DNA of 64,000 nt from a virus (taxonomy: Duplodnaviria; Caudoviricetes). Made by a program: the position numbers and the translations under genes. Below are positions 3,902 through 4,572 of the stretch, one piece after another. The DNA lies in the IMG/VR virus record IMGVR_UViG_3300032330_000989, positions 1,410-65,409 of that record; one strand, given 5' to 3'. Each line of letters starts with the position of its first letter. The first letter of the stretch is position 1. The notes beneath the pieces are model-generated. The model saw only the letters and a list, made by a program, of their open reading frames with translations. It had not been told where the DNA came from and did no database searches.

Positions 3902-3973
3902 GCCGCTGTGTTCGTGGAGAGCTAACAGCTTCTAAAACTGTAAGAGGGGGTTCAATTCCCCCCAGTGGCACCA
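3902..3973 (+). tRNA. amber-decoding tRNA (CUA), 72 nt, tRNA-Pyl-like architecture
   Basis: GCCGCTG/CAGTGGC stem, loop TTCTAAA, GGGGG-TTCAATT-CCCCC T arm, A73-CCA. Confidence 0.85.
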
Positions 3974-3999
3974 TAAATATCAAACAAAGGAGAATTATT

Positions 4000-4572
4000 A
4001 TGACCTAGATTGTTGAATTAGCATGTAAAGAGATGGTGTTCCACTTTAACAAGAAACATCATGAAGACCCTTCAGTTCCTATGTGGATCATTAAAGCCAA
4101 GGGTGAAAGTTATTATGTCGAGCACGTCGAATGTTCCGTGCCCTGGACTACAAAAGAAACTCCCGATAATAATCATACCAAAGGTAGCATTAAAGTCAAG
4201 GATTGCCTCCTGACTATTGATGATGATAACTGTGCTAGTATAGCAGTATTAACAGCACATGATGTCGTTCGTCTAAAGAATCAAGCCAAAGGTATCAAAC
4301 GTATCATTACTCAATGGAGAGAACTATTAGTAAAGACATTAGAGAACAGCAAGATCAAACACGGCCCTATCAAGCGATTCGCAGCAGGCTGTAGCAGTGT
4401 TTGGTATGTATGCGATATATATGATAGAAGTGCCCTAACTATCCTAGGATTGACTATGGTAGATAAGCATCGTGTCCTCATGCCTAACGAGACTTATTAT
4501 AAAGCATACGATGATCCAAATATCATCCTTCCAGATGAGGATGATTATATAGAAGACGACGACGATGAATAA
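4000..4572 (+). CDS. hypothetical phage protein with in-frame TAG at codon 3 (track ORF starts at 4033)
   Basis: AAGGAG RBS 7 nt before ATG4000; ATG ACC TAG ATT GTT GAA TTA GCA TGT AAA GAG ATG is in frame with the 4033 ORF. Confidence 0.7.

Follow-up and report, generated by a model that had tools for sequence, protein, structure and literature searches.

In the recoded crAss-like, Lak and Jade phages, TAG is read as glutamine ('code 15'), and Sup-CUA tRNAs together with a 'code-change module' have been described (Borges et al, bioRxiv 10.1101/2021.08.26.457843; PMC9523058). Stop-codon recoding in gut phages has been proposed to time late and lysis genes at the post-transcriptional level, and suppressor tRNAs in relatives that keep the standard code have been seen as a step towards recoding (bioRxiv 10.1101/2021.08.26.457843). 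Here we analyse a 64-kb stretch of viral DNA (the window), part of a 65.4-kb IMG/VR virus record, in which a tRNA gene with anticodon CUA lies directly upstream of a gene whose third codon is an in-frame TAG. CheckV rates the 65.4-kb record as 18% complete, and the phage is therefore probably a jumbo phage. We think it likely, from the evidence set out below, that this conserved phage gene (positions 4000-4572) starts at an ATG preceded by a Shine-Dalgarno sequence (SD; ATG4000), that its translation must pass the UAG at codon 3, and that this codon is read by the phage tRNA(CUA) encoded 26 nt upstream.

The locus shares with the code-15 phages a phage-encoded tRNA(CUA), a standard-code host and an in-frame TAG that would silence a (probably late) gene until the suppressor acts, which is the logic of a timer. 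It differs from them in that the genome is not recoded, with TAG ending ~10% of the long open reading frames (ORFs) and a normal coding density under code 11; in that neither a release factor nor a synthetase is carried; and in that one gene or operon has a single TAG, which always falls among its first 3-6 codons and is genetically tied to the tRNA. Unlike the code-15 phages of the gut, the viruses concerned here are environmental or soil phages, T4-like and jumbo. An early in-frame stop is likewise found in prfB, the gene for RF2, where a UGA ties yield to the termination and decoding capacity of the cell. Escape in prfB is by a +1 frameshift with an internal SD, and the product itself reads the stop, whereas here a dedicated tRNA is present and the conserved protein runs on in the zero frame right behind the TAG, which does not fit a frameshift escape of the prfB type. 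The UAG read-through of Q-beta A1 and of retroviral gag-pol resembles the present case in that a viral stop is decoded as sense for a needed protein; those systems, however, use near-cognate host tRNAs at low efficiency to add a C-terminal extension at the end of an ORF, whereas here the virus encodes a cognate suppressor and the stop lies right at the beginning, where termination gives no short product of any use.

The nearest parallels in design are synthetic. Anderson, Voigt and Arkin reportedly built a logic gate in 2007 from the supD tRNA and amber codons in T7 RNA polymerase. An engineered feed-forward 'leak dampener' based on a suppressor tRNA (PMC7969014) and engineered amber-suppressor AND logic in P. 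putida (PMC11669171) have also been described. These gates have the same two inputs, an amber-containing mRNA and a separately expressed suppressor tRNA that together give protein, but they are engineered, whereas the arrangement described here is natural, occurs in dozens of phage lineages and has its amber codon at position 3. A full-text search of the literature found no description of a conserved, single-gene amber gate at codon 3, and the locus, judged from its sequence, looks like a natural tRNA-operated translation switch that is apparently undescribed. Phage suppressor tRNAs have so far been explained as accidents or as tools of wholesale stop reassignment. If our reading is true, they have a third use, in which one conserved stop locks one gene, the key is encoded next to it and the code is otherwise standard; the locus would then be a natural counterpart of the amber-suppressor AND gates of synthetic biology and would offer a simple way into how phage code change begins.

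The features of the locus in the window are:

3902-3973, + strand: tRNA gene with anticodon CUA (amber suppressor); 38.6 bits with the Rfam tRNA model RF00005 (E 1e-6; gathering score 29), with a cloverleaf as the minimum-energy fold
3972-3979, + strand: late-promoter-like CATAAATA, agreeing with the T4-type late promoter TATAAATA at 7/8 positions
3987-3992, + strand: SD AAGGAG, spaced 7 nt from ATG4000; an SD-like 4-mer stands in the same place before the ATG in 54/54 distinct relatives
4000-4002, + strand: ATG, the probable true start codon; kept with the SD in relatives, with low entropy
4006-4008, + strand: in-frame amber TAG, codon 3, next base A (TAG-ATT); zero entropy in 47 distinct aligned loci
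4000-4572, + strand: complete coding sequence on the assumption that the UAG is read through, 190 codons and a TAA; 'FHFNKK' family (name used here), matching no Pfam or PHROGs family
4012-4248, + strand: N-terminal all-beta domain (N-domain), residues 5-83, from AlphaFold models
4033-4035, + strand: ATG of Met12, start of the code-11 ORF and rival initiation site; Met in only 4/54 distinct relatives
4261-4527, + strand: C-terminal alpha/beta domain (C-domain), residues 88-176, ferredoxin-like (ACT/RRM-like) by VIA-align at generic scores
4528-4569, + strand: acidic, disordered C-terminal tail (…PDEDDYIEDDDDE), with pLDDT <50 for residues 183-190

From ATG4000 the frame reads ATG-ACC-TAG-ATT-GTT-GAA-TTA-GCA-TGT-AAA-GAG-ATG, where the last triplet is ATG4033, and it continues to a TAA at 4570-4572. 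The 187 codons after the TAG are open, and the code-11 ORF (4033-4572, 179 aa) lies in this same frame. AAAGAG directly abuts ATG4033, and GTG4036 is also in frame. The late-promoter-like CATAAATA overlaps the CCA end of the tRNA, includes TAAATA at 3974-3979 and lies 20 nt 5′ of ATG4000. The original prediction, made from the letters of the window, had listed the 26-nt interval between the CCA end and ATG4000, the TAAATA, the AAGGAG, the codon-3 TAG and the 179-aa ORF; the coordinates of all of these are exact in the sequence, and every element of the locus is real as it was described.

Conservation of the early amber codon and of the frame behind it

In IMG/VR, 353 relatives of the gene were located, and the DNA of 80 loci was examined. 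Together with the window these make 81 loci. The early stop is present in 73/80 related loci; with the window added and duplicates removed, there are 54 distinct sequences. Many of the 80 loci are related to one another, so locus counts are not counts of independent events and the 54 distinct sequences are the fairer number. In the resulting set of 74 TAG-bearing loci (73 relatives and the window) the stop is TAG in every case and TAA or TGA in none, and the layout is always an ATG, one to four sense codons and then the TAG, which thus falls at codons 3-6. The base that follows is a purine in 74/74 loci (A in 64, G in 10), and the next codon is ATT in 57, GTA in 9, ATC in 4, ACT in 3 and GTT in 1. 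Across the 47 distinct loci that were aligned, whose proteins are 51-95% identical, the GAA two codons later shares the zero entropy of the TAG. Eight of the nine single-base changes of TAG give a sense codon, and its persistence through such deep divergence therefore argues that the stop itself is under selection.

Behind the TAG, the sequence varies as codons do. Between the TAG and the FHFNKK core, which is invariant among the distinct sequences, differences lie mostly at third positions: Ala is encoded by GCT, GCA, GCG or GCC, Cys by TGT or TGC, Lys by AAA or AAG, Asp by GAT or GAC, and Val by all four of its codons. The homologue alignment and this codon variation place the gene under purifying selection. 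Of the distinct relatives, 19/54 have no in-frame ATG, GTG or TTG from the TAG to the core. An AlphaFold model of the read-through protein (pLDDT 87.6) forms its first beta strand from residues 5-16, starting before Met12; the model is confident, and the protein therefore needs the residues encoded right behind the TAG. By its pattern of substitution, the stretch between the TAG and Met12 is protein-coding and under protein-level constraint. A start at ATG4033 was accordingly rejected as the origin of the protein, given the rarity of Met12, the constraint on the post-TAG codons and the position of strand 1.

The read-through protein has 1211 homologues in the public protein collection, many of them matching end to end, and their alignment begins M-[A/S]-Q-I-E-[L/F/Y]-A-C-K-[D/E]-x-V-F-H-F-N-K-K. 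The Q at the TAG position of these database entries corresponds to a stop codon in the DNA of 73/80 relatives; it is therefore no independent evidence of glutamine, and most likely reflects code-15 gene calls on short contigs. The original prediction had proposed aligning homologues to learn how far back they extend, and had reckoned with their starting at the Met of 4033. They reach back to M-x-[TAG]-I/V-E-L/F/Y-A-C-K and do not begin at the Met of 4033; Met12 is scarce among the relatives, and 19/54 have no canonical start behind the TAG.

The suppressor tRNA and the use of TAG elsewhere

The window tRNA is 72 nt long, ends in an encoded CCA and carries CUA at positions 34-36. Its acceptor stem has 7 bp, its D arm is compact, with a 4-bp stem and a 5-nt loop, and a C-A mismatch closes the anticodon loop UUCUAAA; the T stem is GGGGG/CCCCC and the base at 73 is A. 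What is expected of a functional elongator tRNA is thus there: the cloverleaf arms and U33 are present, position 37 holds a purine and the 3′ end carries the CCA with discriminator. ARAGORN listed 22 tRNAs and a permuted transfer-messenger RNA (tmRNA) in the window and missed the CUA tRNA; it does call the close relatives of this tRNA at loci L002, L003 and L027. Together with the window (3902-3973), these loci (L002:2278-2349, L003:2260-2331 and L027:1558-1629) form a subclade of 72-nt CUA tRNAs in which a single base separates the acceptor stem from the D stem, the D loop has 5 nt and a C31-A39 mismatch leaves effectively a 4-bp anticodon stem; other members of the family have ordinary arms.

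Altogether there are 49 distinct tRNA(CUA) sequences. They are very divergent, with compensatory changes in 13/15 predicted stem pairs and covariation in the acceptor and T stems, while G1-C72, the encoded CCA and the UCUAA of the anticodon loop are invariant. The tRNAs of the family are, on this comparative evidence, functional and selected to keep the CUA anticodon. Their body (G1-C72, with A73 in the window and A73 or G73 in the family) is unlike the tRNA-Gln of the same phages (U1-A72, G73), and a comparison with the co-resident tRNAs (Gln, Lys, Trp and others) found no source above 0.73 identity; a recent origin from a co-resident tRNA was rejected on that account. The ARAGORN label 'tRNA-Pyl' signifies only the anticodon CUA; D arms of the ordinary kind and 7-nt loops are found in most of the family. 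No pyl genes turned up among those window ORFs that were scanned, although no search aimed at pyl genes was made.

A tRNA(CUA) is found in the same record at 76/81 loci, window included. ARAGORN places one on the + strand ≤2.5 kb upstream of the gene in 61/80 loci, the Rfam model adds six that ARAGORN missed and a search of whole records adds seven that lie 2.5-9 kb off; wherever it falls inside the fetched flanks, the tRNA is upstream of the gene and on the same strand. Four of the five loci without it are contigs cut close to the gene. Co-occurrence of the CUA tRNA with the early TAG, which the original prediction had asked about, holds in 69/74 TAG loci.

The window is densely coding under code 11, and when TAG is treated as sense, credible gene pairs do not fuse more often than expected by chance, nor more often than in the same exercise with TGA or TAA. 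TAG terminates 8/74 ORFs of ≥120 codons. The earlier observation that at least six genes end in TAG thus fits roughly, in that eight such ORFs exist, of which only five are clear + strand genes; its conclusion that the phage is not recoded wholesale agrees with the dense coding under code 11 and with the presence of an internal TAG in only one gene. A scan of the window for a start, 1-4 codons, a TAG and ≥70 open codons returned, with an SD, this gene only. Genome-wide checks were made on a relative whose 360,683-bp genome is complete and has terminal repeats; it encodes one CUA tRNA among 43 tRNAs. There, TAG terminates 34/324 ORFs of ≥150 codons, exactly one SD-ATG-NNN-TAG followed by a long ORF exists, which is this gene, and no credible TAG-split genes were found, the few TAG-merged frames being antisense or low-complexity junk. 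No phage release factor (a protein with an RF-1 domain) is encoded in these phages. TAA is their commonest terminator. In both the window and the complete relative TAG is neither abandoned nor strongly depleted as a terminator, as it would be in code-15 phages. Ordinary TAG terminators were also searched for signs of adaptation to a suppressor; they have no closer back-up stops and show no avoidance of A at +4, and such adaptation was rejected.

One further TAG in the window may be mentioned. The adjacent genes at 37408-38229 and 38239-39015 share a frame and are divided only by TAG-GAG-TAT-GTC, and the SD of the second overlaps the TAG. Amber suppression would join their 273-aa and 258-aa proteins; the arrangement may be due to chance, as one third of neighbouring genes share a frame.

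Early stops in neighbouring genes and in cultured phages

Seven of the 80 loci lack the early TAG in this gene, and all seven keep the tRNA(CUA). In one group (L005, L006, L062, L032 and L034) the protein begins with Met at the position of the TAG (M-I-E-L), and a leader of the form ATG-NNN(-NNN-NNN)-TAG-ATT stands 48 codons (~144 nt) upstream, in frame in L005, L006 and L062 and in another frame in L032 and L034. The leader reads ATG-TTG-TAG-ATT or ATG-AAA-CAG-TTA-TAG-ATT, encoding …ITRFFKNLKNSFF, and represents either an extension of the N-terminus or an amber-started leader in its own right. At L013 and L031 it is the gene directly upstream (L013:1858-2235; L031:2125-2499) that begins SD-ATG-NNN-TAG, as SD-ATG-GCA-TAG-ATT or SD-ATG-AAA-TAG-ATA. 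Relatives that keep the tRNA and lack the TAG had been named in advance as a finding that would count against a gate; L013 and L031 are such relatives, but they carry a TAG at codon 3 of the upstream gene of the same operon. The upstream gene encodes 124 aa, and the two copies are 48% identical. Against PF01981 (PTH2), L031 scores 19.5 bits (cut-off 23) and L013 has no match, so the gene is called 'PTH2-like' only. A further in-frame ATG-CAA-TAG-ATT lies ~36 codons upstream in L031.

Bona fide PTH2 genes with early stops occur in two cultured jumbo phages, Phosso (60.6 bits) and Atu_ph07 (59.2 bits). In both, the N-domain of the FHFNKK protein follows a helical segment to which it is fused, the gene has no stop, and the PTH2 gene, annotated short, lies two genes upstream. 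The PTH2 gene of the Sinorhizobium phage Phosso (PV764938.1; L084:1300-1878) is annotated from an internal Met, and its frame really starts SD-ATG-AAG-TAT-TAG-GTT, so that codon 4 is amber; two genes for tRNA(CUA) are present in this phage (L112:1469-1544; L114:1469-1544). The orthologous PTH2 gene of the Agrobacterium phage Atu_ph07 (MF403008.1; L082:1430-1881) has a TGA at codon 7 (M-I-G-E-H-F-TGA-I-N-Y…), and this phage carries a tRNA(UCA) at L147:1470-1544; a pattern search of it for tRNA(CUA) found none. The Atu_ph07 gene would be an opal version of the same lock. Since UAG goes with tRNA(CUA) in Phosso and UGA with tRNA(UCA) in Atu_ph07, the type of early stop evidently tracks the type of suppressor present in the phage. 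In four lineages, members of the FHFNKK family share a neighbourhood with PTH2-like genes, where the early stop of the PTH2-like gene matches the suppressor.

A third cultured phage, the T4-like Rhizobium phage RHph_I1_18 (MN988519.1, 171 kb), has an unannotated homologue of ~80 aa that consists of the N-domain only and has a TAG at codon 6 (L083:2440-2735, ~10990-11290 of the record, minus strand; M-S-E-F-M-TAG-N-E-S-C-…FHFNK…). It ends just short of an annotated tRNA-Pyl(cta), and the phage is annotated in the standard code throughout, structural genes included. A tmRNA and a small 'GatB-like' protein (3218-3670) are annotated in the same record. As the homologue left unannotated in RHph_I1_18 and the shortened PTH2 genes of Phosso and Atu_ph07 illustrate, standard gene callers shorten or miss such genes, and on short contigs they may switch to code 15. 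These three phages are in culture and have the module, which opens the idea to direct laboratory tests.

The start of the gated gene also resembles the lambda bar minigenes and other two- or three-codon minigenes, which lead to peptidyl-tRNA drop-off and burden peptidyl-tRNA hydrolase: in both, a strong SD, an ATG and one sense codon are followed by a stop. Unlike in those minigenes, 187 further codons are open here and conserved as protein, and the stop is always UAG. The recurring association of the amber gate with a PTH2-like hydrolase is suggestive when seen beside this burden.

An amber-started ORF was also found directly 5′ of the gated gene at L012:1841-2509 and L036:1825-2499. It encodes a 220-aa NUMOD3 homing-endonuclease-like protein and opens M-A-TAG-I-E-Y, identical to the beginning of the gated gene; a mobile endonuclease gene seems to have inserted into the gated gene, capturing or duplicating its first codons. 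As a homing-endonuclease gene it was rejected as an independent client of the tRNA.

The proposed gate, its alternatives and the encoded protein

According to the proposed mechanism, ribosomes would initiate at ATG4000, and RF1 and charged tRNA(CUA) would compete at the UAG. Without charged suppressor, RF1 would release the dipeptide fMet-Thr and no protein would be made; with charged suppressor, the full-length protein would result. The output would be (probably late) transcription multiplied by suppressor activity, which makes a two-input gate. A UAG at codon 3 in a UAG-purine context would cost almost nothing when closed, a dipeptide only; this position and context may favour the tRNA over RF1, and a weak suppressor could then open the lock while mostly sparing TAG terminators. 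Work by Bossi (1983) and by Miller and Albertini (1983) on amber context is said to have found that a purine after UAG favours suppression, and very short nascent chains, as in minigenes, terminate inefficiently. The gated gene is probably expressed late, because TATAAATA with ≤1 mismatch lies upstream of the SD in 22/54 distinct loci (8% background) and complete relatives encode a gp55-like late sigma factor. The anatomy of the locus, the TAG-specific conservation, the coding constraint behind the TAG, the structural need for the residues encoded there, the linkage to the tRNA and the absence of recoding support the suppression-gated reading put forward in the original prediction, and every computational check proposed with it turned out in its favour. 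We infer, as that prediction did, that the protein would be made only when the tRNA is charged, and the lock appears to be one of a single gene or, in some relatives, a single operon.

Several observations weigh against this interpretation. The tRNA(CUA) is retained where the gene has no TAG, and so the gene is not the tRNA's only reason to exist; in some relatives the tRNA has further clients, the PTH2-like genes, and is thus not everywhere a private key for this gene. An in-frame start codon follows the TAG in 35/54 relatives and in the window (ATG4033, GTG4036), and a shorter isoform could be made without the tRNA. About 10% of long ORFs end in TAG without protective features, so that an efficient suppressor should be costly. 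The window tRNA is itself atypical, being missed by ARAGORN and having a compact D arm and a 31-39 mismatch. One record with the TAG (L077; 330 kb, 93% complete) yielded no CUA tRNA, its tRNA array reaching the end of the contig. Finally, the presumed special permissiveness of codon 3 is drawn from the literature on minigenes and codon context.

In two alternatives the tRNA does not gate the gene. ATG-ACC-TAG could be a two-codon leader ORF, with the protein starting free of any suppressor at AUU, ATG4033 or GTG4036, possibly by termination-reinitiation. AUU is a weak bacterial start codon, used in infC, and ATT or ATC stands behind the TAG in 61/74 loci, while the ATG, GTG or TTG codons ahead of the FHFNKK core in the 35/54 relatives would provide other starts. 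Any stop would serve reinitiation, however, yet TAG is used in 74/74 loci where TAA is the commonest terminator; GTA, GTT or ACT follows the TAG in 13/74 loci, and 19/54 relatives have no canonical start before the core. The residues from the TAG to Met12, moreover, are constrained as protein and form strand 1, and such a leader would leave unexplained both the linkage to tRNA(CUA) in 76/81 records and the exchange for TGA and tRNA(UCA) in Atu_ph07. We therefore regard a leader ORF as improbable; reinitiation at AUU, which covers at most ~80% of the loci and explains neither why TAG alone is used nor why the tRNA is linked, was rejected. A little more credible, though still unlikely, is that the phage tRNA does read the UAG but that no gating results, the codon being tolerated and frozen. 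The suppressor would then be kept for something else, for instance to serve other client genes, to read through TAG terminators of host or phage, or for counter-defence. The persistence of the tRNA at L013 and L031 and its PTH2-like clients fit this idea, as does the residue at the TAG position, which seems unimportant, some homologues starting with Met there. A neutral TAG, on the other hand, should quickly decay to one of its eight better-translated sense neighbours, whereas the 47 distinct loci show zero entropy at 51-95% protein identity, with the placement at codons 3-6 and the purine context kept; and where this gene has lost the TAG, the first gene of the operon has one at its codon 3 instead.

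The remaining alternatives concern the nature of the sequence. The phage could be TAG-recoded (code 15), with the window showing only its portion in standard code; the other 82% of the genome, including the late structural genes, would then be rich in in-frame TAGs, and this gene would be one among many. The low completeness of the record leaves room for this, known recoded phages have suppressor tRNAs in standard-code regions and concentrate their recoding in late genes (bioRxiv 10.1101/2021.08.26.457843), and many database homologues have Q at the TAG position, though probably from code-15 calls on short contigs. Against it stand the complete 360,683-bp relative, which carries the module, has no credible TAG-split genes, ends 34/324 ORFs in TAG and contains one early-TAG gene, as well as RHph_I1_18, which uses the standard code throughout, and the lack of a phage release factor; we consider it very unlikely. 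A sequencing or assembly error, or a recent nonsense mutation giving a pseudogene, would need only one C-to-T change to turn CAG into TAG, and the original prediction had listed a sequencing error, with a sense codon in the reads, among the findings that would refute it. This TAG recurs in 73 relatives that were assembled independently and come from many samples, which rules out a sequencing error, and the gene is under purifying selection, so that the chance of an error or pseudogene is negligible.

The product of the gated gene gave few leads. The N-domain alone is modelled with confidence by AlphaFold (pLDDT 90.5), but the best VIA-align match has Z 3.5, with scattered OB-fold nucleic-acid binders at Z ~2.5-3 and no convincing match. 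The C-domain (residues 88-176) reaches Z 5-6.6 with many ACT and RRM domains, a generic level, and its matches include the tail of an archaeal CCA-adding enzyme. Foldseek against the PDB found nothing for the whole protein or the N-domain, the PDB sequence profile gave nothing below E 0.1, and the window protein has no match to PF01981. BFVD returned uncharacterised homologues only, and the ESM Atlas, queried with the homologue P0038, no usable match. A profile search of 1.8 billion representatives gave 146 clusters in three architectures (N-domain plus C-domain, N-domain alone, and helical segment plus N-domain), among which there were no informative domain fusions; most homologues have an acidic tail, and the N-domain also occurs in cultured rhizobiophages. 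The neighbourhood weakly suggests a role in the handling of tRNA or peptidyl-tRNA. Because the family shares its operon with a PTH2-like hydrolase bearing a suppressor-matched stop in four lineages, the protein might, as a tentative guess, be a tRNA- or translation-handling accessory of the suppressor module.

A wider reading, which we hold to be somewhat more doubtful than that guess, joins these observations. Large standard-code phages, T4-like and jumbo, from freshwater, soil and rhizobial sources, might carry a self-referential module of a suppressor tRNA and a few client genes, the FHFNKK-family protein and/or the PTH2-like hydrolase, each locked by a matching early stop. Such a module could gauge suppression against release-factor activity and feed back on it or on the turnover of tRNA and peptidyl-tRNA. 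If this were true, it would be a natural homeostat or checkpoint for a deliberately partial code change, and possibly the evolutionary seed of fully recoded phages.

The window phage and its relatives carry several translation-rescue parts. The permuted tmRNA of the window lies at 23661-24179 and has the tag ANDNFVTSRELALAA, and a betaproteobacterial-type tmRNA lies beside the module in one relative (L050:3291-3759). Apart from the tRNA, the PTH2-like genes of L013 and L031 and a peroxiredoxin gene in 12 loci, no conserved neighbours of the gated gene were found. The peroxiredoxin (Redoxin/AhpC-TSA) gene, at 3351-3893 in the window and near the pair of tRNA(CUA) and gated gene in the 12 related loci, varies in its order relative to them; at the DNA level, cyanophages and a pelagiphage hold its closest relatives.

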